Positions 5,563 to 52,680 of a stretch of DNA of 64,000 nucleotides are shown here, one piece after another; the first letter of the stretch is position 1; each line of letters opens with the position of its first letter. The stretch is from Oscillospiraceae bacterium (GTDB taxonomy: Bacteria > Bacillota > Clostridia > Oscillospirales > UBA929), in contig JAIRUW010000060.1 of NCBI GenBank assembly GCA_031254195.1, positions 1,778-65,777 on the forward strand. The letters are read 5' to 3'. Below the pieces are notes generated by a model. That model ran no database searches and was not told the origin of the DNA. It was given only the letters and a program-made list of their open reading frames with translations. The position numbers and the translations under genes are program-made.

Positions 5563-6084
5563 TCACCAAATCACCTTTTTCGTTTCCGTGTCAAATTCTA
5601 CACTTCTTCCTACACCAAAATCTATACGGATACTTTTTGGCTGCTGATCTGTTGTGAAAGTGAATGTGTGATCACCGGCAAATGTATATGTATACCCCTC
5701 ATCGGCTTCAATAGGCTTGTTGCCGACATATAAAATGGTAGAGGTGATTTTTGGAGGACTCGAAAGAATGAGACCAATATTTACCACTACTTTTACCTTT
5801 TCGCCATCCCGCGCCACTTTCTTAAGAAAGACGTCAACAGAGCCACTTGCAAAACCAGTGTTGACACCTACGTTCTTTACATACTCACGCACTTCTTTTG
5901 CCTTTTCGGGCGCGTCTTTATAGTCGCCGAGCGCCTCAAATGCCTTGGCGGCTTTGCTATATTCGCCTTCCGAGAACAGCGCTTCGGCTTCCTCATAAGG
6001 CTTTTGGTTGCTGTCGCACCCCGCGAACATGCCGGCCGCTAAAACGGCGGCGATGAGCAATGCTATGATATGTTTCGTTTTCAT
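5563..6084 (-). CDS. lipoprotein, unknown function (paralog 1)
   Basis: 173 aa. Signal peptide plus lipobox MFAGC. C-terminus (DQQPKSIRIxF..FDTETKKVI) shared with the next gene. Confidence 0.7.
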   Translation of the reverse strand: MKTKHIIALLIAAVLAAGMFAGCDSNQKPYEEAEALFSEGEYSKAAKAFEALGDYKDAPEKAKEVREYVKNVGVNTGFASGSVDVFLKKVARDGEKVKVVVNIGLILSSPPKITSTILYVGNKPIEADEGYTYTFAGDHTFTFTTDQQPKSIRIDFGVGRSVEFDTETKKVIW

Positions 6085-6140
6085 TTCCAGCTTCCTTTCT
6101 ATTTGCTATCTTGTAGGTGTTGCTAAATATATGATCCCTT

Positions 6141-6169
6141 GTAGGGGCGGCCTTTGGCCGTCCGTCGTA
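6141..6169. repeat. REP-like hairpin repeat GTAGGGGCGGCCTTTGGCCGTCC (copy 1)
   Basis: 8-bp stem GGGCGGCC/GGCCGTCC (one G-T) with a TTT loop. Same motif at 6740, 23403, 28577 and 36041. Confidence 0.8.
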
Positions 6170-6230
6170 TCGATTGTAATTCCACCTACCACGAACCGCC
6201 AAAGGCTCCCCGGAAGAAGGCTTTTCGGGT

Positions 6231-6683
6231 CTATTCAATCACCTTTTTCGTTTCCGTGTCAAATATTACGATGCTTCCTCCGGCAAAATTTATTCGGATA
6301 CTTTTAGGCTGCTGATCTGTTATAAAAGTGAATTTGTGATCACCGCCAAGTGTAATTGTATACTCATCATCTTTTCCAATAAACCAGGCTTCATCACTTT
6401 GGTAAATACTCGCCCACTCTTCGGCATTGGTAATAGGCTTGTCGCCGACATATAAAATGACAGCGTCAAGATCTGGATAATTTGAAAGACCCATATTAAC
6501 CCATGCCGTTACCTTTTCACTGTCCCGCTCTATTTCCGTAAAAGAAACGTCAACATTGCCACTTATGTCAGTATTTCGGAATCTGACATTTACGGTCTTT
6601 ACATTGTTGCTGTCGCACCCCGCGAACATTCCAACCGCTAAAACGGCGGCGATAAGCAATGCGATGATATTTCTAGTTTTCAT
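6231..6683 (-). CDS. lipoprotein, unknown function (paralog 2)
   Basis: Track ORF 6231-7097 trimmed to the internal MKTRNIIALLIAAVLAVGMFAGC start (aa 139). The leader DNA is near-identical to that of paralog 1. Confidence 0.7.
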   Translation of the reverse strand: MKTRNIIALLIAAVLAVGMFAGCDSNNVKTVNVRFRNTDISGNVDVSFTEIERDSEKVTAWVNMGLSNYPDLDAVILYVGDKPITNAEEWASIYQSDEAWFIGKDDEYTITLGGDHKFTFITDQQPKSIRINFAGGSIVIFDTETKKVIE

Positions 6684-6739
6684 TTCCAGCTTCCTTTCTA
6701 TTTGCAATCTTGTAGGTGTTGCTAAATGTATGATCCCTT

Positions 6740-6768
6740 GTAGGGGCGGCCTTTGGCCGTCCGTCGTA
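6740..6768. repeat. REP-like hairpin repeat (copy 2)
   Basis: Identical core GTAGGGGCGGCCTTTGGCCGTCCGTCGTA. Confidence 0.8.
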
Positions 6769-6947
6769 ACGACTGTAATTCCAAGCTCCCTCCCCTCTAA
6801 AAGCCGGCCCGGAAGCCGGCTTGCCCGAGGAAAATCGCGCAAAACAAAAGCACACGCCGAAAGCGTGGCGGCCTTGCCGCCGTTCACCTTACGACATGTG
6901 CGAATACTCGCAGCTATTGCCGAACCGTACGAACCATATACACCCGC

Positions 6948-8087: not shown

Positions 8088-8980
8088 TGCCGGGCAAACG
8101 CGAAGAGCCAAGGGAAAAACGCCGCCGTTCCAAAGGCTGTTTGGTCACGCTGATTCTTCTGGCGGCTGTTTTGTTTTGGCTGCCGACCGAGCTTTACCTT
8201 TCCAATAACGCGCCGCGCACCGAGCATATCACGGTGCGGTCTTCGCGTCTGCCCGCCGCTTTTGACGGCTTCCGCATCCTCCACCTCTCCGACCTGCACG
8301 AAAAGGGTTTCGGCAATGGCAATGAGACCCTTCTCCGCATGGCGCGGGACGCCAAGCCCGACGTCATCGCCGTCACCGGCGACCTGATCGATTCGGCGGA
8401 AGCGCTGTATTACGCGGAGACACTGCTGCCGGCATTGACGTCCATCGCGCCCGTATACTATGTCACCGGCAACCACGAATGGGCCGCAGACGGAAAGACC
8501 GCGCACGCCGGGCGGAACAGGCTGATCACACGCCTCGAAACGGTGGTCTGGGACAGCGGCGCGGTTTGGCTGGATTCAGGATACGATACGCTGGAGCGCG
8601 GCGGGGAACGCATCCTGCTCGCCGGGCTGTGCGACCCCAACGGCCCCAGGTCGGAGCCGAACGTACACGAGCTTCGGCAAAGGATAGACGCCGAACACGG
8701 AGACAGCCCGTTCACCGTCCTGCTCAGCCACCGCCATGACCTCGACTATACCGGCGCCGGATTTGACGTCGTTTTAACCGGCCACGCCCACGGCGGCGTG
8801 GTGCGCTTGCCGTTCACCGACGGGCTGATAGGGCCGGACCGGGAGTGGTTCCCGCGCGGGACGTCCGGTGTGCTCTCACAGGGGGGGGTGTCGGTGGTGG
8901 TCAATCGCGGGCTGGGGGATACGTATTTCCCGAGGTTTCTAAACCGCCCGCAAGTGCTGGTTGTGACGCTGTCGGCTTAG
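8087..8980 (+). CDS. membrane-anchored metallophosphoesterase (YkuE/YaeI-like)
   Basis: 297 aa. N-terminal TM segment. Motifs LSDLH, GDL, GNHE and GHAHGG. TGATG overlap with the NYN gene. Confidence 0.75.
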   Translation: MPGKREEPREKRRRSKGCLVTLILLAAVLFWLPTELYLSNNAPRTEHITVRSSRLPAAFDGFRILHLSDLHEKGFGNGNETLLRMARDAKPDVIAVTGDLIDSAEALYYAETLLPALTSIAPVYYVTGNHEWAADGKTAHAGRNRLITRLETVVWDSGAVWLDSGYDTLERGGERILLAGLCDPNGPRSEPNVHELRQRIDAEHGDSPFTVLLSHRHDLDYTGAGFDVVLTGHAHGGVVRLPFTDGLIGPDREWFPRGTSGVLSQGGVSVVVNRGLGDTYFPRFLNRPQVLVVTLSA

Positions 8981-9022
8981 TGTGAAATAGATATGTTTAT
9001 CGTAGGGACAGGAGAGTATCAT

Positions 9023-9727
9023 ATGGGTAAAAATTCAAAAATCCTTCATGACGACACGTTAATTGTTTGGAATAAACATCCTGTCGGCGAATACCGTAAG
9101 TATTTCCAACAGGCAACAGGCAAGGAAGAAATTGTAACGGTTTGCAGAGATTTTCAAACATGGCTGTTCACGCAGGCCGGCAAAACCCTAAAGGAAGCGC
9201 TGGAGGAGCTTAATCATCCGTCAGGTTCTAAAAACATGGAGGAACTTTTGACGGAGAGAAGGTTTGATATGGTCTCCGGGTCTGATAAGGCATTCATTAT
9301 AGCCTTTGACAAAGCGATACATGAATTTGGCTACGACTTCGGCGGTGCGATTGGAAGCGGGAATGTTTGGAGTTTGCTGGTGGTGGCCTATGGAAAGACC
9401 GGCACTAAAAGCAGGCCGTGCGCCGCGCGGATATATATCAGGGACGCCGGCAGCATTATGCTGCGGCTATACATGCGTAAAGTTGATGCTCACCGGCAAT
9501 ACGTAGAAAATGCCCCGTCATATATCAAGGAAGCATTTACAAGTGGTAACGGTAACTGTACATTCTGTTGGGATAAATGCCCGGCCCGACCCGCAGCTTA
9601 TACCATTGACGGGCAACTTTTCCATAAATGCCAACACGGCATGGTGTATTTCAATGCGCCATCGGTGGAAAAGCTGCCAGATTACATGGGTTTATTTTCG
9701 GAGTTTTATCCGGTAAAAACTAAATGA
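9023..9727 (+). CDS. hypothetical Cys/His-rich protein
   Basis: Track ORF 8993-9727. ATG 9023 has a GGAGAG RBS. C-terminal CTFCWDKCP...HKCQH cluster. Lower GC. No family recognised. Confidence 0.45.
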   Translation: MGKNSKILHDDTLIVWNKHPVGEYRKYFQQATGKEEIVTVCRDFQTWLFTQAGKTLKEALEELNHPSGSKNMEELLTERRFDMVSGSDKAFIIAFDKAIHEFGYDFGGAIGSGNVWSLLVVAYGKTGTKSRPCAARIYIRDAGSIMLRLYMRKVDAHRQYVENAPSYIKEAFTSGNGNCTFCWDKCPARPAAYTIDGQLFHKCQHGMVYFNAPSVEKLPDYMGLFSEFYPVKTK

Positions 9728-9767
9728 ACAGCGCTATAACACCACAGTATAAGTATTTTACCAGCCA

Positions 9768-11600
9768 TCAACCTTTTCCCCGCAACCAAATCATCAGCGC
9801 CGTCAAATCCGCCGGGCTGACGCCGGAGACGCGAGACGCCTGTCCCAGATTTTGGGGGCGTACGCGGTTTAGCTTCTCCCTCGCCTCCAGGCGCAGTCCT
9901 TGTATGGCGGCGTAATCCACATCCTCCGGCAACGCCCGGTTTTCCATGTGGGACAGCTCCTCCATCAGCGCCCGCTGGCGGCGCAGGTAGCCCTCATATT
10001 TGACCTGTATCTCCACCTGCTCCGCTACCTCATCCGATACGTCCGGGCGGGAGGGGTCGGACACCGCGAGCGACGCGTACGTAACCTCCGGGCGGCGCAA
10101 TTGCGCAGTCAAGCGCGCCTTATCCAGCCGCGCGATCTCGTCCTCCACCGCCTTGTTTTTTTCCATGACCGTATCGTATCGTTCCTTGGGCAGCAGCCCA
10201 AGCTCATACCCCAGCGGCGTCAGGCGGGCGTCGGCGTTGTCTTGCCGCAGCAGCAGACGGTATTCACTGCGCGAGGTCATCATGCGGTACGGCTCTTCCG
10301 TGCCGCGCGTTACGAGGTCGTCGATTAGTGTGCCAATATAGCTGGACGAACGAGGGAGGACAAAAGGCCCTTTCCCCTGTACATGCCTTGCCGCGTTGAT
10401 CCCCGCGACCAGCCCCTGCGCCGCCGCCTCTTCATACCCGGACGAGCCTAAAATCTGTCCGGCGGAAAACAGGCCGGGGAGTTGCTTCGCCATCAGCGTC
10501 GGCGTAAAACAGAGAGGGTCGGCGCAGTCATATTCGATGGCGTAGCCGGGGCGGGTCATCACGGCCCGTTCCAGCCCCGCGACGGCGTGAAGGACTCTCT
10601 CCTGCACATCCTCCGGCATGGACGACGACAGCCCCTGCAAGTAGTATTCGTCCGTGTCCAGCCCCATCGGCTCGCAGAAAACGGGGTGGCGCTCCTTGTC
10701 GGCAAAACGCACCACCTTATCCTCAATCGACGGGCAGTAACGCGCCCCTACGCCTTCGATCACACCCGAATACATCGGGCTTTTGTCCAGATTCTCCCGC
10801 AGTATCGCATGGACAGCTTCATTTGTCCATGTCATCCAGCAGGAGACGATGTTTTTTACGGGACGGGGCGTTGTGAACGAAAACGGGACGGTATCCTCCC
10901 CGTCCTGACGCTCCATTTGGGAAAAGTCAATCGTCCGCCCTAACGCGCGGGGCGGCGTGCCCGTCTTAAAGCGCCGCAGGCGCAACCCCAACCGCAGCAG
11001 CGCTTCCGACAACGCCTTTGCCGGCAGCAGCCCGTCCGGCCCGGCCTCGCTGACATGGGCGCCGGTGAGGACGCGGCTGTTGAGGAAGGTGCCGGTGGCG
11101 ATGACCACGGTTTTGGCAGTGTATTGCGTTCCGGCGGCGGCGGTGAGGATATAACTCCCTCCGCCGTCAGCGGACGGCACCTCCCTCGGCGAGGGAGGCA
11201 TAGCCCCCCTCCAGAGGGGGGCGGAGGGAGCAATATCAACAATCTCCGCCTGTTTGAGCGTGACTTCGCGCTCCAGCAGGCGTTTCATATGGGCGCGGTA
11301 AGCGATGCGGTCGGCCTGCGCGCGCAACGAATGCACCGCGGGGCCTTTGCCGCGGTTGAGCATCCGGTATTGGATACAGCAGGCGTCGGCGGCTTTGCCC
11401 ATCTCGCCGCCCAGCGCGTCGATTTCGCGCACCAGATGGCCTTTGGCCGTGCCCCCGACAGACGGGTTGCAGGGCATATTGCCCACGGCGTCGAGCTGTG
11501 TCGCGAAACAGATGACAGAACAGCCCAAACGTGAAGCCGCCAGAGCGGCCTCGATGCCGGCGTGCCCCGCGCCCACGACGGCGACGTCATATAGTCTCAT
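9768..11600 (-). CDS. mnmG: tRNA uridine-5-carboxymethylaminomethyl synthesis enzyme MnmG (GidA)
   Basis: 610 aa. VVGAGHAGIEAALA FAD motif, MPCNPSVGG, FKTGTPPR. Confidence 0.9.
   Translation of the reverse strand: MRLYDVAVVGAGHAGIEAALAASRLGCSVICFATQLDAVGNMPCNPSVGGTAKGHLVREIDALGGEMGKAADACCIQYRMLNRGKGPAVHSLRAQADRIAYRAHMKRLLEREVTLKQAEIVDIAPSAPLWRGAMPPSPREVPSADGGGSYILTAAAGTQYTAKTVVIATGTFLNSRVLTGAHVSEAGPDGLLPAKALSEALLRLGLRLRRFKTGTPPRALGRTIDFSQMERQDGEDTVPFSFTTPRPVKNIVSCWMTWTNEAVHAILRENLDKSPMYSGVIEGVGARYCPSIEDKVVRFADKERHPVFCEPMGLDTDEYYLQGLSSSMPEDVQERVLHAVAGLERAVMTRPGYAIEYDCADPLCFTPTLMAKQLPGLFSAGQILGSSGYEEAAAQGLVAGINAARHVQGKGPFVLPRSSSYIGTLIDDLVTRGTEEPYRMMTSRSEYRLLLRQDNADARLTPLGYELGLLPKERYDTVMEKNKAVEDEIARLDKARLTAQLRRPEVTYASLAVSDPSRPDVSDEVAEQVEIQVKYEGYLRRQRALMEELSHMENRALPEDVDYAAIQGLRLEAREKLNRVRPQNLGQASRVSGVSPADLTALMIWLRGKG
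11155..11230. repeat. 76-nt multi-hairpin palindromic element embedded in frame in mnmG
   Basis: Outer arms CTCCCTCCGCC/GGCGGAGGGAG enclose three short GC hairpins. Encodes ..PSAPLWRGAMPPSPREVPSADGGG.. Confidence 0.7.
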
Positions 11601-12133
11601 AGCTTCTTAACAGTCTTTTTCAGCGCTTTTTGCGTCCCGAAAACCAAAAGCGCATAGGGCAAAACCAGCGCGACCCGCCAAGGCAGGGATGCCCACAGCG
11701 CGATCCAAAAATCGGCATACCAGCCCGCCTGCGTTCCGAAATAGGCGGTCAGGGGCATCGTGATAACCACTTGGCTAAGCCCAACGGTAATCAGCGCGCG
11801 CCAAACGGAAGGGCCGCGTTTATACAGCAGAAATCCGAAAACCAGCCCATTCAGCGCCGCAATCAAGGTAAATCCCGGATTCAGCACTGCGTTTCCGGTC
11901 GGGTTGATCATCGCTCCCAGGACGTCCCCTGCCATGGCAACCCCCAGCCCCCAGCCCGGGCCAAGCAGCCATCCCGCGGACGCGTACCAAAGGGGCTGCA
12001 AGCTGACGCGGACAAGATTCGGCGGCACCGTCGGCATAAAATATGTGAGCGGCAATATCCGTACTGTTACGATTTCCAACGCGATAAACAGCCCGGCTAG
12101 GACGAGATACCGCAGCTCATACCCCTTTTTCAC
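11597..12133 (-). CDS. ECF transporter S component, folate (FolT)-like
   Basis: 178 aa, about 6 TM segments. Resembles FolT-type S components (GDxLGAxxxPxG, NPGFTL). Substrate assignment is tentative. Confidence 0.55.
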   Translation of the reverse strand: MKKGYELRYLVLAGLFIALEIVTVRILPLTYFMPTVPPNLVRVSLQPLWYASAGWLLGPGWGLGVAMAGDVLGAMINPTGNAVLNPGFTLIAALNGLVFGFLLYKRGPSVWRALITVGLSQVVITMPLTAYFGTQAGWYADFWIALWASLPWRVALVLPYALLVFGTQKALKKTVKKL

Positions 12134-13748
12134 GGTTGACCAGCTCCTCCGCCTGCTCGCGCAGCTTATATTTCAGAATCTTGCCCGCCGCGTTCATTGG
12201 CAGCGAATTGATAAAGAACACATGACTCGGCACCTTGTGGCGCGACATGCGGGCGCTCACATATTCCTTGATGTCCGCCTCAGACGCGGCCGAGCCTTCG
12301 CGCTTTATAACAAAGGCGGCCACCTCCTCGCCGAACTTTTTGCTCTGCACGCCCACCACCTGCGAATCCTGCACGTCGGGACAGGTGTATAAAAGCTCTT
12401 CGATCTCGCGGGGGTAGATGTTTTCGCCGCCCCGGATGATCATGTCTTTCAGCCGCCCGGTGATGACGTAATACCCTTCTTCGTCGCATGTCCCTATGTC
12501 GCCCGTGTGCAGCCAGCCGTCGGCGTCGATGGCGGCGGCGGTCGCCTCGGGCATGTTATAGTAGCCTTTCATCAGATGATACCCGCGCGTTACGATTTCG
12601 CCCGGCGTTCCCGGCGGGACCTCCTCGCCCGTTTCCGGGTCTATGACTTTGCCTTCGGTAAAAGGCAGCAGCTTGCCGACCGTCGTCGTGCGCCGCTCGA
12701 AAGTGTCTTCGGCATGGCTCATCGTCATGCCGGGGCTGCACTCGGTCTGCCCGAACACGCTGACCAGCTCGCGCTGCCCCAGTTCCTCGTTGGCACGGCG
12801 CATGACCTCCACGGGGCAGGTGGAACCGGCCATGATGCCGGTGCGCAGGGATGAAAAATCATATTTCGCGAAATCCGGGTGGTCGAGGATGAAGATGAAC
12901 ATGGTCGGCACGCCGTGCAGGGCGGTACACCGCTCCGCCTGCACCGTCTCCATGACGGCGGCGGGGCTGTAGACCTCTACCGGCACCATCGCCGACGCGT
13001 GGGTGATACATGCCATCTGCGCCAGCACCAGCCCAAAGCAATGGAAAAACGGCACGCAGATACAGAGCCTGTCCCGGGGTGTAAATTTCATATTCTCGCC
13101 AATGAAAAACCCATTGTTGAGGATGTTGTGGTGGGTCAGCATGACGCCTTTTGGGAAGCCGGTCGTGCCGGAGGTATACTGCATATTGATCATGTCGTGC
13201 TCGTCCAGCCCGGCTTGCACCTCGTCCAGCCTCTCCGCGGGCACTTCGTCCGACATTTGGATAAACCGGCTCCACGGCAGGATGCCGCCGGTCGCCTTCT
13301 TCCCGCCCGGCTCGTCCATATGGATAAGGTGCCGCAGCACCGGCACGCGGGAGAGGTCTTTGAGCAGCTCGCCCAGTATCTCATGGTAATCACTCGTTTT
13401 GATGCCGTCGCTAAAGATGAGGACTTTGGCGTCCGACTGGCGCAGCAGGTATTCCAGCTCGAAAATCTTATAGTTGGTGTTGACCGTCACCAGCACCGCG
13501 CCGATCTTGGCGCATCCGTGCAAGGTATAGACCCATTCCGGCGTATTGGTGGCCCAAACCGCCACATGGTCGCCCTTCTTCACGCCCAGCGCCACCAGGG
13601 CGCGCGCCGCCCGCCGCGCCACGTCGTTCAGCTCACGGTAGGTCAGGCGCAGGCCGCGGTCGTGGTAAACAAGCGCTTCGCGGTCCCCGTGCTCACGCGC
13701 CATTTTATCCATCCAGCCGCCGATGGTGGAATGTAATAATTCAGGCAT
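12117..13748 (-). CDS. AMP-forming acyl/aryl-CoA ligase (adenylate-forming enzyme)
   Basis: YTSGTTGFPKGV and GWLHTGDIG...GRLKDMIIRGGENIYPREIE motifs. Start trimmed to MPELLHST behind a GGAGGTGG RBS. Confidence 0.8.
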   Translation of the reverse strand: MPELLHSTIGGWMDKMAREHGDREALVYHDRGLRLTYRELNDVARRAARALVALGVKKGDHVAVWATNTPEWVYTLHGCAKIGAVLVTVNTNYKIFELEYLLRQSDAKVLIFSDGIKTSDYHEILGELLKDLSRVPVLRHLIHMDEPGGKKATGGILPWSRFIQMSDEVPAERLDEVQAGLDEHDMINMQYTSGTTGFPKGVMLTHHNILNNGFFIGENMKFTPRDRLCICVPFFHCFGLVLAQMACITHASAMVPVEVYSPAAVMETVQAERCTALHGVPTMFIFILDHPDFAKYDFSSLRTGIMAGSTCPVEVMRRANEELGQRELVSVFGQTECSPGMTMSHAEDTFERRTTTVGKLLPFTEGKVIDPETGEEVPPGTPGEIVTRGYHLMKGYYNMPEATAAAIDADGWLHTGDIGTCDEEGYYVITGRLKDMIIRGGENIYPREIEELLYTCPDVQDSQVVGVQSKKFGEEVAAFVIKREGSAASEADIKEYVSARMSRHKVPSHVFFINSLPMNAAGKILKYKLREQAEELVNREKGV

Positions 13749-13767
13749 CTCAGCCACCTCCGTATAA

Positions 13768-14078
13768 ACGTAAAAGCCCCTTGGAGCTGTCGCTCCAAGG
13801 GGCGTAAAAAGCATGTCACGCTCCATGCGCGGCTCTTTTCCTACGCGGTACCACCCTTGTTCCCCAAGCCGGTCGCCCGGCCCGGGCTTTGTGTCTCCAT
13901 GAGACGGCGCTAAGCGTACGCTCAGCGTGAAACGCTCGGGAGCGAGGAGCCTCCCCTCTGTCCGTACCGCCTCACACCAACGACCCGGCGCAGTCCAAGC
14001 GCAAGCTGGACATGCTAGATCTCCGGCGGCTCTCTGAACGGCGCTCGTGGGAAACGCTCTCCTTCATCGCGCTGGTAT
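13768..14078 (-). promoter_or_regulatory. T-box riboswitch leader
   Basis: Invariant GGGUGGUACCGCG (complement of 13844-13856), GCGAUGA K-turn start, AGAGA box and GGUGUGA. Terminator CCCCUUGGAGC-GACA-GCUCCAAGGGG plus a U tract at 13771-13802. Confidence 0.8.
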
Positions 14079-14085
14079 ATTGCGT

Positions 14086-14114
14086 ATTATGGCAGACCTT
14101 CACAGGTTTGTCAA
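14086..14114 (-). promoter_or_regulatory. promoter of T-box operon (TTGACA-17-CATAAT)
   Basis: Perfect -35 and a good -10 on the minus strand. Confidence 0.6.
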
Positions 14115-14389
14115 GGGGTTTTTCGTTGACAGTTTTGGCGGGGGTGTACTGTTTCCAGCTTATCACGCATTAAGGAACGGGGCGAGCCTTTTAACTAGGT
14201 GCCATCCTCCTTGGCAAAATAAACATATAGTATACCATATATTGAGGGGGTTGTGTATGCACAAATTTGAAGTATTTTTGCAGGAATTTCTTTCAATTTA
14301 GTGAATGGACAGATTTTTACAGATGTGGTATGGTATTGATGCGGGATGGTAGGCCTACTTTCCGACATAATGATTGGGGGTATTTACCA

Positions 14390-15145
14390 ATGAAGAAAGC
14401 AATCGCGGTGCTCCTCGCCTTAACATTCCTGTTTTCGTTCCCCATCACAGCGGAAGCGCGCTGTATGCACCCTGTCACATATCAGCAGACCCAGCCTCCC
14501 ACCTGTGCGGACGTTGGAAGAACCTTTAACATCTGCTCGTACTGCGGGGCTACGGTGTCATTCACAGTAACAGCATCGGCGTTAGGACATCAGTACAATA
14601 CTACAGGTACAACAGCAATGAACATCTGCATAAGGAATACGACTTGCGGATACATAAACGGAGCAACATCAAGCCATTTTCAACATTACATGTATCGGAC
14701 GACGAGCCTCACGGGTTCTACCAGCGATCGTCGCGCAAACTATATCTATCGTGAACATCCGACTCCGGGATTCAATTATCCAAATACCTCCGGGTCTATT
14801 AATGGGGGGATTGATATACAGACCGGTTCGGTGGGAGTTGTCATGGGATACCACATATATGCGCAAGGCACGGGGGTGGTTTCAAATTATGGGATAAATT
14901 TGAACACACCTGAAGGAAATTTCGTGGAAATAACATACACCAACGGTTGGAGGGTGCAGTATATGCACTTTATTGATCCGCCTAGTGTAGGCAAGGACGA
15001 ACCTGTATCAGTGTCAACACAGATTGGCCGAACGGGAATGTCAGGAACAACAAGCACAGGATACCACCTACATATTGATGTAAAGCAAAACGGCAATTTT
15101 GTCAGAACAAGAAACCTTTTCCCAAACGGGACAATGAGAAATTAG
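14390..15145 (+). CDS. secreted M23 (LytM-type) metallopeptidase
   Basis: Start trimmed to the MKKAIAVLLALTF signal peptide. N-terminal CxH..C..CxxC module. GMSGTTSTGYHLHID catalytic motif. Confidence 0.75.
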   Translation: MKKAIAVLLALTFLFSFPITAEARCMHPVTYQQTQPPTCADVGRTFNICSYCGATVSFTVTASALGHQYNTTGTTAMNICIRNTTCGYINGATSSHFQHYMYRTTSLTGSTSDRRANYIYREHPTPGFNYPNTSGSINGGIDIQTGSVGVVMGYHIYAQGTGVVSNYGINLNTPEGNFVEITYTNGWRVQYMHFIDPPSVGKDEPVSVSTQIGRTGMSGTTSTGYHLHIDVKQNGNFVRTRNLFPNGTMRN

Positions 15146-15157
15146 GAGGAAAGTGAA

Positions 15158-16033
15158 ATGAAAAAAATCTTATCATTGGCTATATCGGCCATACTGCTGC
15201 TCACCCTGTTCGCCTGCGCGGCAGAGACGCCTCCCGAGATTCCCGCCCCATTGGGAACAGACGCCGAATCGCCAACCCCGCAGGAAACACCCTCTTCTGA
15301 ACCGCCGGAAGATACAGGCACAGAATCCGATGACCCGCACGAGACACTTTCCTCTGAACCACTGGATTTTATTGACCCTCACGGGCTGTTTAGTGCAGCC
15401 GGAATGCCTGTCCCTTCTGAGGTAGGCGGAGGTGATATAGAGAAGTTCTATACCCCCTGTATTGATAAGCTATATGTGAGCTCTCCAATATGGGAAGACA
15501 TTGCCATGTACCTAGGGCTTACGGAGCGGGAGTTTCTTGATAATCTCTATGAAAAATATGAAGGGAACTTCTGGAGTACATTTGATAAGAGCAGTTTGAT
15601 GGAGACAACCAACTTACTCTCAATAATGGTCGTGTATGACATCCCCAACGAGGTCGTCCTTGCCTCCATCATGGAACTCAACGACATGAACGAAAATTTC
15701 GCCGTGCAATTTGGCGATGAAGATTTCAGAGATCGCAAATTCACTGACGCCGAGATTGAAGCCCTCCTCTCCCGCGACGCGGCAACGGTATTGGAGCACT
15801 TCGCCACAGAAAAGGCTGTCGTGATTGGCGATAAGGTTTACTCCCCCGTTTGGCTTTATCTCCACACCCCGGAAGACTATGAAAAAGCCGGCATAACAAT
15901 CGAAATGCTTGAGGAAAAGCTGAATTTATACGGCGATTTCAATCTAACTGCCGAGGCCGCCAAAGCATTTGAGGCGAAATTGTCGGAGTTTACAGGGCAA
16001 AGCGTGACGCTGGAACAACGCCAAGCCGACTAA
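15158..16033 (+). CDS. lipoprotein, unknown function
   Basis: 291 aa. Lipobox LFAC followed by an acidic Pro/Glu/Thr/Ser-rich linker. Confidence 0.6.
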   Translation: MKKILSLAISAILLLTLFACAAETPPEIPAPLGTDAESPTPQETPSSEPPEDTGTESDDPHETLSSEPLDFIDPHGLFSAAGMPVPSEVGGGDIEKFYTPCIDKLYVSSPIWEDIAMYLGLTEREFLDNLYEKYEGNFWSTFDKSSLMETTNLLSIMVVYDIPNEVVLASIMELNDMNENFAVQFGDEDFRDRKFTDAEIEALLSRDAATVLEHFATEKAVVIGDKVYSPVWLYLHTPEDYEKAGITIEMLEEKLNLYGDFNLTAEAAKAFEAKLSEFTGQSVTLEQRQAD

Positions 16034-16123
16034 GCAGCGAAAAGCTACAAGGGGGACGCAGAACGATTCGGGCTGTGTCCCTCTCTGTTCTAAGCAAGAA
16101 TATCGAGAAAGCAGGAAACAAAA

Positions 16124-16294
16124 ATGAAGATGCTTATGTTTGGAATCGCACTGCTTCTATTTAGCATTGTGTGGTTATTTTTCTGGAATCGCGGCAATTC
16201 TCAGTTCGCATATATTACTGATTATGGCACAATGATACTTGCCATCACAGGACTCTTTATATCAATCATAGGACTAATCAAGAAAGACAAGTGA
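16124..16294 (+). CDS. 56-aa two-TM membrane peptide
   Basis: Below the track cutoff. Own translation: MKMLMFGIALLLFSIVWLFFWNRGNSQFAYITDYGTMILAITGLFISIIGLIKKDK. AGGAAA RBS. Low GC. Confidence 0.4.
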   Translation: MKMLMFGIALLLFSIVWLFFWNRGNSQFAYITDYGTMILAITGLFISIIGLIKKDK

Positions 16295-16483
16295 AACAAC
16301 CCCCAAACGGCGGGGTCGTCCGAAGATTATGCGAAAGCGGGAATAACGCCGGAAATGATTGAAGCAAAACTAGATTTATACGGCGAGTTCAACCTAACCC
16401 TCGAGGCCGCCAGAGCGTTTGAAGCGAAGCTGTCGGAGTTTACGGGGCAAAACGTGACGCTGGAACAACGCCAAGCCGACTAA
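16295..16483 (+). pseudogene. 3' remnant of a paralog of lipoprotein gene 15158-16033
   Basis: 16319-16540 repeats 15869-16095, including the stop and 3' flank. The frame is open from the TGA of the small ORF but has no start codon. Confidence 0.7.
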
Positions 16484-16638
16484 GCAGAATTGAACCACAA
16501 AGGGGGAACGCAGAACGATTCGGTCTGTGTCCCTCTAAGCGTTTTTGCGGGCGGTTTCGTTTAAGCGTTCCCTAACCATTCCGTTTTTGAGATATATTTT
16601 CATTTATTTGCGGAAATGTGCCCGGGGAATAATTTTCA

Positions 16639-16783: not shown

Positions 16784-17545
16784 ATGGGGAAAATCATCGC
16801 GGTCGTCAATCAAAAGGGCGGTGTGGGCAAGACCACTACCTGTGTCAATACGGCGTACGCCCTGTCGCAAGCGGGACGTCGTGTTTTGCTTTGCGATTTT
16901 GACCCGCAAGGCAACGCCACGTCGGGCATGGGCCTTTCCAAAAGTACCGCCCCCGGTTCCTACGACGCCGTCATCCGGCTGGAAGACCCCGCCGCCGCCG
17001 TACATACCACAAACTTCTGCGACGTCATGCCGGCCGGCAAGTCGCTCTCCGGCGCGGAAATCGAAATGATGGGCCTCCCCCGGCGCGAGCACCGCCTGCA
17101 CAGCGTCTTGCAGGCGCTGGCCGGGCGCTATGATTTTATCCTCATCGACTGCCCTCCTTCGCTCGGGCTGCTGACCCTCAACGGCCTTTGCGCCGCCGAT
17201 TCCTTCCTTGTGCCGGTGCAGTGCGAATATTACGCACTGGAGGGGCTTAGCGACTTACTCTACACCGTCCGCGCCGTCAAGCAAGGCGGTTTGAACGCGG
17301 AACTGGAGCTGGAAGGCGTCCTTTTGACGATGTTCGACGCGCGCACCAACCTGTCTTTGCAAGTGGCGGAGGAGGTCAAGCGTCATTTCCCCGGAAAGAT
17401 ATACAAAACGGTCGTCCCGCGCAACGTACGGCTGAGCGAGGCGCCCAGCCACGGGATGCCGGTGCAGAAATATGACCCCGCTTCCAAAGGGGCGGACAGC
17501 TATGACGCTTTGGCGCGGGAAATCGTGAAAAGAAACCGGCCTTAG
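16784..17545 (+). CDS. soj: ParA-family chromosome partitioning ATPase Soj
   Basis: 253 aa. Deviant Walker A NQKGGVGKTT. Followed by parB. Confidence 0.9.
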   Translation: MGKIIAVVNQKGGVGKTTTCVNTAYALSQAGRRVLLCDFDPQGNATSGMGLSKSTAPGSYDAVIRLEDPAAAVHTTNFCDVMPAGKSLSGAEIEMMGLPRREHRLHSVLQALAGRYDFILIDCPPSLGLLTLNGLCAADSFLVPVQCEYYALEGLSDLLYTVRAVKQGGLNAELELEGVLLTMFDARTNLSLQVAEEVKRHFPGKIYKTVVPRNVRLSEAPSHGMPVQKYDPASKGADSYDALAREIVKRNRP

Positions 17546-17557
17546 GGGTGGAAGAAG

Positions 17558-18400
17558 ATGAAAAATACAGGTCTTGGGCGCGGTTTAGGCGCGCTGCTGG
17601 GCGACGCGGCCATCCGCCCGCCCGAAAACAGCACGGTGGAGCTTCGCATAAGCGAAGTCGAGCCAAATTCCGCCCAGCCGCGCAAAGGCTTTGACGAGTC
17701 GGCACTGGCCGACCTGACCGAATCCATCCGCCAGCAAGGGATATTGATGCCGCTGTTGGTACGCCGGATGCCATCCGGCTCCTACCAGATCATCGCCGGG
17801 GAACGGCGCTGGCGCGCGGCCCGCGCGGCCGGACTGACGACAGTCCCCGCCATCGTCCACGACGCCGACGACCGCCGCGCTACCGAGCTGGCCCTAATCG
17901 AAAATCTCCAGCGCGAAGACCTCAACCCCATTGAAATCGCCGAGGGCTATAAGGCGCTGTCTGAGGAATACGGGCTGACGCAAGAGGAGATTTCCGAGCG
18001 GGTGGGGCGCAGCCGCCCTGCCATTGCCAACACCATGCGTATCCTATCCTTGTCAAAGACCATTTTGGACATGGTGCGCGGGGGGCGTTTGTCCGAGGGG
18101 CAGGCCCGTTCGCTGCTTCCGCTTTCCGGCCGTAAGGCGGTGGAAAAAGCCGCCCTGCAAATGGCCGACGGCGCTCTGACGGTGCGCCAGGGCGAGATGC
18201 TGGTCAAAAAACTGCTGGCGGAGCCTAAGACGGCGAAATCCAAGCCCTTGCGGCATGTAGGGGACTATGAGCGCGGCCTGACGGAACGCTGGGGGCGCAA
18301 GGTCATTGTATCCGGCGGCGTAAAAAAGGGTAAAATCGAGTTTGAATACTATGACGCGCGAGACTTAGAGGCCTTGGTCACACGATTGATGAAACCGTAG
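17558..18400 (+). CDS. spo0J: ParB/Spo0J chromosome partitioning protein
   Basis: 280 aa. ParB box IIAGERRWRAA and an HTH region. Confidence 0.9.
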   Translation: MKNTGLGRGLGALLGDAAIRPPENSTVELRISEVEPNSAQPRKGFDESALADLTESIRQQGILMPLLVRRMPSGSYQIIAGERRWRAARAAGLTTVPAIVHDADDRRATELALIENLQREDLNPIEIAEGYKALSEEYGLTQEEISERVGRSRPAIANTMRILSLSKTILDMVRGGRLSEGQARSLLPLSGRKAVEKAALQMADGALTVRQGEMLVKKLLAEPKTAKSKPLRHVGDYERGLTERWGRKVIVSGGVKKGKIEFEYYDARDLEALVTRLMKP

Positions 18401-39125: not shown

Positions 39126-39143
39126 TGATTTCATCCTTTCCTA

Positions 39144-39212
39144 TGTCACGCTCCATGCGCGGCTTGCGGCTGGGTCAGAAGTGAATTCCTCCCCTGCAAG
39201 CCGATGGAGCAG
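39144..39212 (-). repeat. structured spacer element, type 1 (copy A, rpsM|rpsK)
   Basis: mRNA sense GCUCCAU-CGGCUUGC-[loop]-GCAAGCCG-CGC-AUGGAGCGUGACA. Ends 1 nt before the rpsK SD. Confidence 0.75.
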
Positions 39213-45226: not shown

Positions 45227-45275
45227 AGTGCTACCTCCTGTTATGTTGAGGTGTCAGGAGGGACGGTTTTTGAGT

Positions 45276-45360
45276 GTTACGCTCCATGCGCGCCTCGCGG
45301 GCGGTCTTGTAAGCGGGAAGCGAGTTCCCCCTTACACTCCCTGCTCGGCGATGGAGCAGC
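45276..45360 (-). repeat. structured spacer element, type 1 (copy B, rpsN|rpsH)
   Basis: GCUCCAU-CGCC...GGCG-CGC-AUGGAGCGUAACA with a longer internal hairpin. The spacer is 159 nt. Confidence 0.7.
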
Positions 45361-45385
45361 TCATCTCAAACCTTTCTCCCCTGTT

Positions 45386-46148: not shown

Positions 46149-46219
46149 TGTTGCGCTCCACACGCGTCTCACGGTCAGGAGCGGAAGTGAATTCCACCTT
46201 CTGTGAGCCGATAGAGCTG
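46149..46219 (-). repeat. structured spacer element, type 1 (copy C, rplX|rplE)
   Basis: GCUCUAU-CGGCUCAC-[..GGAAUUCACUUCC..CUGACC]-GUGAGACG-CGU-GUGGAGCGCAACA. Abuts the rplE SD. Confidence 0.75.
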
Positions 46220-46223
46220 TTCG

Positions 46224-52575: not shown

Positions 52576-52680
52576 TGGCGGCAAAACAGCCATTCCCCGA
52601 ACCGCCCGATTGTCGGACATACTCCGCCGAAGTTACCAGCAACGCTGCAATCTCCGGCATCATCGCAAAGACGCTTGAGT

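Follow-up and report, generated by a model that had tools for sequence, protein, structure and literature searches.

Leucine T-boxes are known upstream of leuS and of ilv-leu operons or leuA, such as the Geobacter leuA leader, which responds to tRNA-Leu(GAG) (PMC2700814). In a 64,000-nt stretch of an Oscillospiraceae bacterium genome (assembly GCA_031254195.1, contig JAIRUW010000060.1, positions 1,778 to 65,777), referred to below as the window, a leader on the minus strand (13766–14114) belongs to the same Rfam family (RF00230), follows the same CUC logic, and shares with the leuS and leuA T-boxes the UGGN:NCCA pairing, the antiterminator/terminator switch and, as predicted, induction on leucine scarcity. 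It differs from them in its target, which is an acyl-CoA ligase and not a synthetase, a leu/ilv gene or a transporter. The mechanism is that of an ordinary T-box; what it controls is a widely conserved and apparently undescribed member of the leucine regulon.

A CoA-ligase target is not mentioned in the T-box surveys PMC2494555, PMC3766115 (with supplements) and PMC7778990, and the literature that we compared, outside of which lie several key reviews and TBDB, describes no T-box before a CoA ligase, an acyl-CoA synthetase or mnmG. On the metabolic side, the closest described system is the reductive carboxylation of isovalerate (EC 1.2.7.7-type), a route by which rumen and gut anaerobes make leucine and which, in the account of Allison, Baetz & Wiegel (1984) as cited in PMC7709123, leads from the acid through the acyl-CoA and the 2-oxoacid to the amino acid. 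The accessible portions of the literature on the genes of this route contain nothing specific and assign neither an activating enzyme nor a regulator.

A preliminary description of the same DNA had proposed a T-box with a terminator/antiterminator switch and named RF00230 as the model with which to compare it. On a 701-nt local region that model aligns end to end (E-value = 1.3e-4), at 29.3 bits (gathering score, 93), and a whole-window Rfam scan at the gathering threshold does not report the T-box. Because the score of the single sequence is weak, the case rests on comparison with relatives, for which we used 80 loci encoding relatives of the ligase and contigs of closer relatives. T-boxes scoring 100–153 bits, above the gathering score, precede ten ligase orthologues of 51–58 per cent identity (L005, L006, L013, L019, L023, L025, L040, L045, L054 and L063), and the compact leaders of the window's own clade (L001–L004 and L082–L084) reach 55–74 bits (E-values of 1e-9 to 1e-14). 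When the canonical T-box architecture was laid on an alignment of eight clade leaders, 89.9 per cent of the cells were paired, compared to 40–51 per cent when the partners were slid by 1–3 columns. Both sides had changed in 21 of the 47 pairs, and none of 500 shuffles reached the observed values. Of the Stem I helices in this alignment, the basal, the middle and the distal one are each 95–100 per cent paired. We conclude that the leader is a genuine transcription-attenuating T-box, as had been proposed. Its low score is due to three inserted hairpins (~93 nt) and a reduced Stem II: the distal loop of Stem I measures 51 nt where the model expects 9, and the antiterminator loop 34 nt where it expects 4. 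The clade as a whole departs from the Rfam consensus in the reduced Stem II, a non-consensus S-turn in the specifier loop and a Watson-Crick base of antiterminator helix A2.

The promoter, the K-turn start, the AGAGA box, the distal-loop motif and the T-box sequence all lie where the preliminary description had placed them (coordinates of the leader and of the genes behind it are on the minus strand). The promoter is of sigma-70 type (TTGACA-17-(TG)CATAAT, 14086–14114), matches the consensus at 11 of 12 positions with a TG ahead of the -10 box, and is the top-ranked promoter-like site of the interval 9000–14600; its stretches TTGACAA and CTGNCATAAT are kept in the alignment of relatives. Stem I (13933–14070), delimited by the Rfam alignment and showing compensatory changes in the clade, consists of a K-turn base of the GCGAUGA...UGAGC type (box GCGATGAAGGAG at 14059–14070, with its GAUGA...GA base), the specifier loop, the AG bulge CAGAGAG (14030–14036), the distal helix GCCGCC/GGCGGU and the distal T-loop TGGTGTGA (RNA: UGGUGUGA; 13972–13979), which the Rfam alignment also identifies. 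The model positions for Stem II and Stem IIA/B are mostly deleted in the clade's Rfam alignments, and in their place a 5-bp hairpin remains (GUCUC-AUG-GAGAC, 13893–13905; 65 per cent of cells paired); this domain is optional within the T-box family (PMC7583486). Stem III (13863–13886) is a 10-bp hairpin with a GCGA loop and compensatory changes, and its purine flanks, AAAG and GAA, match the motif RRRxG-Stem III-AA (PMC7583486). In overall layout the leader thus resembles the glyQS T-boxes without Stem II and IIA/B (PMC7583486), with which it has in common a long Stem I that carries the elements of a double T-loop platform, a linker of short length, Stem III, the discriminator domain and the lack of a full Stem II or pseudoknot. 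It differs from them in its specificity, which is for leucine and not glycine, and in the small residual hairpin at the place of Stem II.

The T-box sequence, AACAAGGGTGGTACCGCG (RNA: AACAAGGGUGGUACCGCG; 13844–13861), is invariant across the clade. In the antiterminator, helices A1 (CAAGGG:CCCTTG) and A2 (GCGTA:TACGC) are separated by the 7-nt bulge UGGUACC, whose UGGU part (13850–13853) would pair with the ACCA at the 3' end of the tRNA. The 3' strand of the antiterminator, UACGC plus CCCUUG (13796–13806), is also the 5' arm of the terminator, and the two structures, with UACGCCCCUUG as their common strand, are mutually exclusive. The alternative pairing of the terminator arm with CAAGGG that had been suggested is helix A1, to which A2 is added. 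The intrinsic terminator (13766–13803) is a G+C-rich hairpin, GCCCCTTGGAGC-GACA-GCTCCAAGGGGC at 13776–13803, followed by TTTTACGTTT (RNA: UUUUACGUUU); hairpin, GACA loop and U tract are as first described, and the stem has 12 pairs, not 11. Its predicted energy is -24.8 kcal/mol, it shows compensatory changes across the clade, and the terminator region folds better than shuffled sequence (z = -5.0).

The basal pair of helix A2 is G-C in the window and eight relatives of its clade and A-U in L001, in contrast to G-U in all 12 of the canonical ligase-linked Leu T-boxes outside the clade. A G-C pair in place of G-U has been reported in streptococcal glyQS leaders as a rarer but functional variant, according to PMC11404447, which cites Li et al. 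2019; there is a likeness in that 10 of 10 clade members are Watson-Crick paired, and a difference in that the change here marks a clade, with the ligase leaders outside it keeping G-U. We considered whether the clade-wide loss of the wobble pair signals a broken steric sensor of aminoacylation and rejected this idea on the strength of the same report of a functional G-C pair (PMC11404447). The Watson-Crick base of A2 is a clade marker and a known minor variant.

The specifier codon, which the preliminary description had been unable to assign, is CUC (13944–13946), a leucine codon identified by homology to the Rfam specifier slot, with G at 13943 as the conserved purine behind it. On its 3' side the specifier loop has the sequence GCUC-CUC-G and abuts the CUCC strand of the basal helix, and in the window's clade AGCG/GCUC stands in place of the S-turn consensus AGUA/GAA. 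Among 19 ligase-linked leaders, the slot holds CUC and a purine in 18 and CUG and G in one (L004); all of these codons specify leucine, none isoleucine or valine. That the switch between CUC and CUG is synonymous argues for conservation of the leucine identity. The CUC codon would pair with the anticodon GAG, and the discriminator base of bacterial tRNA-Leu is A, in agreement with the UGGU bulge. CUC also conforms to the 'C-rule' for specifiers (PMC7778990). By its sequence, then, the T-box is specific for tRNA-Leu.

The first gene behind the leader encodes an acyl-CoA ligase of 543 amino acids (ANL superfamily, PRK12583-like; 12117–13748), with the Shine-Dalgarno sequence GGAGGTG at 13755–13761. 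Both of its Pfam domains, AMP-binding (346.6 bits) and AMP-binding_C, are well above their cutoffs, and its best subfamily match is NF009233 (PRK12583; 704.3 bits, cutoff of 832). A Leu T-box heads this ligase family in ~20 loci across Clostridia, including Oscillospiraceae, Christensenellaceae, Ruminococcus, Anaerofustis, Guopingia and other lineages, at most of which the ligase is on its own; L019 is the locus of the isolate Guopingia tenuis NSJ-63. Outside the window's clade, the gene that follows the ligase differs from lineage to lineage (S-methyltransferase, PASTA kinase, acyl-ACP thioesterase in L054, lgt and others), so that what is conserved is the pair of Leu T-box and ligase. The genes upstream of the canonical T-box-ligase loci are unrelated as well, and we dropped the neighbours of these loci as a clue because they are unrelated to leucine metabolism. 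The evolutionarily conserved target of the T-box is the ligase and not mnmG, the third gene of the window's operon. The preliminary description had set this cargo apart from aminoacyl-tRNA synthetase and amino-acid genes. That distinction is not supported: with a leucine specifier, a Leu T-box that recurs on its relatives and, in sister lineages, an operon shared with a POR/VOR-family oxidoreductase, the ligase is most simply a leucine-supply gene, which comes close to what the same description had named as evidence against its view, namely a ligase that belongs to a T-box-regulated amino-acid pathway.

What the ligase activates is suggested by a second set of loci. In 11 of them (L009, L011, L014, L024, L028, L064, L065, L071, L074, L075 and L080), the ligase gene is followed on the same strand by genes for the gamma-delta, alpha and beta subunits of a 2-oxoacid:ferredoxin oxidoreductase of the pyruvate/2-ketoisovalerate family (POR/VOR type). 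In a neighbor-joining tree, ligases of the two kinds, oxidoreductase-linked and T-box-linked, are intermixed within the clostridial branch. These operons of sister lineages fit isovalerate carboxylation, and it is gene context and the Leu T-box that connect this route to the ligase family. The use of an acyl-CoA by a VOR-type enzyme, combined with induction by uncharged tRNA-Leu, fits the activation of isovalerate for leucine synthesis, a conversion known in rumen and gut anaerobes from the work of Allison et al. (1984) insofar as PMC7709123 recounts it. The probable substrate of the ligase is therefore a branched short-chain acid, with isovalerate as the likeliest candidate. Bacilli have an acyl-CoA dehydrogenase gene ahead of the ligase gene. 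One of the 11 loci, L014, might combine T-box and oxidoreductase: the T-box core and helices A1 and A2 are present, Stem I is degenerate and there is no Rfam match, and we set it aside as suggestive only.

We found no description of these ligase-oxidoreductase operons. They often carry a xylose-isomerase-like TIM-barrel protein gene, and those of Desulfuromonadales and Methanosarcina have a helix-turn-helix-cupin regulator upstream. In L011, a long inverted repeat, CTTCGTAATGATAGCC...GGCTATTCATTACGAAG (8560–8740), lies in the 500-nt spacer between the TIM-barrel and oxidoreductase genes, and a TGGCACCGCG core between its ligase and oxidoreductase genes turned out not to be a T-box.

Behind the ligase gene the window has two more genes on this strand, in the layout that the preliminary description had given. 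The first (11597–12133) encodes a folate-family (FolT-like) S component of an energy-coupling factor (ECF) transporter of 178 amino acids (TIGR04518; 78.7 bits, cutoff of 60); its GTG start overlaps the ligase stop by 17 nt, and both the start codon and an upstream GGAGGA are kept in relatives, whose JGI name is 'ECF transporter S component (folate family)'. No Ecf energising module is encoded after rplQ or elsewhere in the window. The second is mnmG (gidA; 9768–11600; TIGR00136, 747.7 bits, cutoff of 524.85), which overlaps the S component gene by ATGA and encodes a full-length protein of 610 amino acids with the GIDA, GIDA_C_1st and SAM_GIDA_C domains. Both genes follow the ligase in only nine loci (the window, L001, L002, L081–L084, L185 and L186), all with ligase identities of at least 71 per cent; in L003 and L004, which share the T-box-ligase unit, both are missing. 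Within the clade the ATGA overlap is constant, and the junction of ligase and S component genes ranges from the 17-nt overlap to a 105-nt spacer. The spacers between ligase and S component and between S component and mnmG hold no same-strand terminator and no convincing promoter, and co-transcription of both genes from the T-box promoter is thus plausible.

The genes parA and parB lie near mnmG (16784–18400), rsmG follows mnmG in L186, and a gidA-gidB/parAB neighbourhood is the ordinary origin-proximal setting of mnmG. The window is origin-proximal, and mnmG stands in its ordinary gidA place. In Firmicutes mnmE is usually found upstream of mnmG; it is not there in the window, where the ligase and S component genes fill that place. 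In L082, the tRNA 2-thiouridylase gene mnmA lies divergently upstream of the leader. The suggestion that a tRNA sensor, a folate importer and a tRNA modifier form one unit stands as far as the lack of a separating terminator or convincing promoter goes; the functional link drawn from it is better seen as a consequence of gene order. Most likely, the connection to tRNA modification is a by-product of where the cassette landed, with the S component and mnmG genes as passengers.

Aligned with its nearest relatives, the window leader carries three blocks, of 43, 20 and 30 nt, that are found in the window only. All are self-contained hairpins in loops and leave the recognition elements untouched. 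Insertion 1 (13980–14022; predicted energy of -17.1 kcal/mol) is a 43-nt hairpin in the distal loop of Stem I, just 5' of the T-loop, and is the extra Stem I hairpin that the preliminary description had suspected. It is missing from L001–L004 and L082–L084. The closest and syntenic relative, L185, has a homologous 21-nt hairpin at the same site, with the outer AGAYC...CGGGTCG in common; by this likeness insertion 1 looks like an inherited expansion that was lengthened in the window. The block is not repeated elsewhere in the window, and the metagenome contigs contain nothing identical to it; we therefore dropped the idea of a repeat or mobile element, without using the flanking CGCCGG direct repeat as evidence. 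We know of no described precedent for an insertion in the distal loop of Stem I. Insertion 3 (13908–13927) is a 20-nt palindromic hairpin, CGCUGAGCG-UA-CGCUUAGCG, in the linker after Stem I (-12.7 kcal/mol, z = -3.9), and insertion 2 (13811–13840; -10.9 kcal/mol) places 30 nt atop helix A2; both are missing from all relatives.

Insertion 2 accounts for the oversized antiterminator loop that had been noticed earlier, which measures 34–37 nt rather than about 39. It holds a 22-nt exact copy (13813–13834; blastn-short E-value = 8e-8) of positions 39143–39164, the 3' half of a hairpin element, which bears out the earlier observation of a half-copy of a spacer element; full copies of this element lie in the intergenic spacers before rpsK, rpsH and rplE. 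The nearest known parallels are the staphylococcal glyS 'stem Sa' and other lineage-specific insertions (PMC4574755, PMC9177973), in which, likewise, 30–42 nt atop A2 lengthen the antiterminator stem. The window block differs from stem Sa in that its source is an unrelated hairpin element from between the genes of the same genome (22-nt identity), in that it occurs in one lineage only and not genus-wide, and in that it is accompanied by two further insertions. The full element, GAGCTGCTCCATCG...GCAGG...[variable inner hairpin]...CCGCGAG-CGCGCATGGAGCGTGACA, occurs on the minus strand of the window at ~39143–39212, ~45275–45362 and ~46150–46220, immediately before the ribosome-binding sites of rpsK, rpsH and rplE, and is also found in L093, L117, L118, L130, L140, L141, L179 and L182. 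It recurs in termite-gut metagenome contigs, once directly before tRNA-Ile(GAU)/tRNA-Ala(UGC) in a setting that resembles an rRNA spacer. It matches no Rfam family at the gathering threshold and may be an intercistronic processing or stability element.

The GGAAAAG of insertion 2 pairs with a pre-existing CUUUUU and extends A2 to ~9 bp plus an apical hairpin. As a result, the predicted energies of antiterminator and terminator in the window are close (-24.1 and -24.8 kcal/mol), whereas in five compact relatives they are -12 to -16 and -21 to -23 kcal/mol, respectively. A much weaker antiterminator is normal for a switch that needs a tRNA to tip the balance. With an antiterminator nearly as stable as the terminator, higher basal read-through and leakier control are predicted, and the window's switch should be biased to read-through. 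A relative with 86 per cent ligase identity, L081, has no T-box at all: at 440–515 the conserved promoter, followed by the initial ~25 nt of the leader (to GGAGAGTGTGTTACC), meets the ligase ATG, with a leftover GGAGAG acting as the Shine-Dalgarno sequence. Such a loss could reflect natural deregulation or could be an artefact of assembly. Taken with the A2 extension in the window, it invites the speculation that relaxed control is tolerated, or even favoured, once housekeeping genes lie downstream.

Combining these results, we propose the following model, which we hold with somewhat better than even confidence as a whole: a tRNA-Leu T-box controls a ligase for leucine supply, the S component and mnmG genes are passengers, and the insertions leave recognition intact. 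Uncharged tRNA-Leu would dock on Stem I, its 3' end would stabilize the antiterminator helices A1 and A2, and RNA polymerase would pass the 12-bp terminator into the operon; with charged tRNA-Leu the terminator would form. The ligase would convert isovalerate to its CoA ester, and isovaleryl-CoA would be carboxylated reductively by a POR/VOR-type 2-oxoacid:ferredoxin oxidoreductase to 2-oxoisocaproate and on to leucine; alternatively, the ligase may spare leucine-derived isovaleryl-CoA. In one Oscillospiraceae clade, the T-box-ligase cassette would have come to adjoin, from upstream, a translationally coupled unit of FolT-like S component and mnmG(-rsmG), which would then probably be co-transcribed as a passenger.

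Several observations weigh against this model. The window leader itself scores far below Rfam's gathering threshold. No tRNA-Leu gene with which anticodon and discriminator could be compared lies in the window or in the relatives' loci, where the tRNA genes close to the leaders are those for Arg, Ala, Lys and Gln. The Stem II and IIA/B domain is reduced, which is usual in Gly T-boxes and less so in Leu ones. Insertion 1 sits in the distal loop that forms the platform for the tRNA elbow and could impair tRNA docking. The ligase falls below the PRK12583 cutoff, its family is annotated only as fatty-acid CoA ligase, and none of its close relatives has a solved structure or a specific name. The 64-kb window encodes no alpha or beta subunit of the oxidoreductase, and the T-box-linked ligases mostly do not lie beside one, L014 being the only locus that may combine both. 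Finally, the S component and mnmG genes could be served by a promoter within the ligase gene.

A leader that is no T-box, with coincidental motif matches in G+C-rich sequence, would be in keeping with the 29.3 bits and with the minimum-free-energy fold of Stem I, which by itself is no better than shuffled sequence (z = +0.79) and uninformative; however, positionally orthologous leaders score at E-values of 1e-9 to 1e-34, the clade shows covariation and the terminator region a z of -5.0, and we count this alternative as refuted. If the T-box is as described, the ligase may still not feed leucine synthesis. Exogenous isovalerate or another branched acid could be activated to serve as a primer of branched-chain fatty acids, sparing leucine, or the substrate could be a different acid, such as isocaproate or 2-methylbutyrate. 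The unspecific family annotation, the acyl-ACP thioesterase downstream in L054, the lack of an oxidoreductase in the window and the acyl-CoA dehydrogenase neighbour in Bacilli, which points to catabolic use, would all suit such a role. Yet the same-strand oxidoreductase genes in 11 loci belong to ligases that interleave with the T-box-linked ones, and the specifiers are exclusively Leu even though Ile and Val also supply branched-chain primers; we regard a ligase outside leucine synthesis as an unlikely prospect.

Two further alternatives concern what the window's switch still senses and what it serves. The T-box could be a decaying or ON-locked relic in which the insertions have disabled tRNA sensing and left the operon constitutive or silenced by the terminator. 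Insertion 1 breaks the distal loop beside the T-loop, insertion 2 raises the antiterminator to the terminator's stability, and the missing T-box of the close relative L081, with the promoter fused to the ligase start, implies that loss of regulation is tolerated in the clade. But the K-turn, the specifier with its purine, the AGAGA box, the T-loop, the T-box bulge, A1 and A2 and the terminator are all intact, the three insertions are self-contained hairpins in loops, and the shorter hairpin at the insertion 1 site that L185 has in common indicates that this structure persisted through speciation. Insertions on A2 are, moreover, known from staphylococcal glyS and from translational T-boxes, where they do not preclude function (PMC4574755, PMC7583486, PMC9177973). 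A relic is accordingly unlikely in our view. A different purpose, in line with the link that the preliminary description had suggested, would be that the T-box couples tRNA status to folate import and folate-dependent modification of U34, with the S component and mnmG as the cargo that matters and the ligase as an accessory. MnmG uses methylene-tetrahydrofolate, the S component is of the folate family and translationally coupled to mnmG by ATGA throughout the clade, and the three genes overlap or abut without a terminator in nine loci. Set against this, at least 12 lineages further away have the Leu T-box on the ligase only, the T-box-ligase unit of L003 and L004 lacks the other two genes, and mnmG lies in its ancestral gidA-gidB/parAB context. 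The tRNA that CUC recruits, tRNA-Leu(GAG), has G34 and is not known to be an MnmEG substrate. We give a dedicated folate and U34 circuit only a slim chance, and prefer the model of a ligase-directed leucine T-box with passenger genes.

Some other features of the analysed loci are recorded here. The only Rfam family above its gathering threshold in the window is the S10-Clostridia ribosomal protein leader (RF03136; minus strand, 52610–52671, 42.9 bits), and a second AGGGTGGTACC at ~59720 lies inside a coding region and is due to chance. In L003, a c-di-GMP-I-GGC riboswitch (RF03167; 4145–4230, 64.1 bits) precedes an open reading frame of 347 amino acids, ~1.5 kb upstream of that locus's T-box-ligase unit. 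The window also contains direct repeats of 178 nt (93 per cent identity; 6007 and 6606), 145 nt (83 per cent; 5569 and 6237) and 184 nt (81 per cent; 15872 and 16322), in the repeat regions 5569–6783 and 15872–16536, and a family of five copies of the 25-nt sequence TTGTAGGGGCGGCCTTTGGCCGTCC (6139, 6738, 23401, 28576 and 36039).

For the T-box family, the clade shows that Rfam scans at the gathering threshold can overlook an entire clade of T-boxes, and the window leader is a natural example of the extra structure that a T-box may tolerate. The locus is also a warning that function should not be inferred from operon order. A more far-reaching idea, which we think quite unlikely, is that the clade's mnmG(-rsmG) and folate-type importer genes have no promoter of their own and are transcribed solely by read-through of the Leu T-box. 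If that were true, U34 tRNA modification and folate uptake would be governed by the charging of tRNA-Leu, and the A2 extension in the window and the T-box deletion in L081 would be two independent loosenings of this dependence. For leucine metabolism in these anaerobes, the conserved pairing of T-box and ligase nominates a gene for the activation step of the route from isovalerate to leucine.

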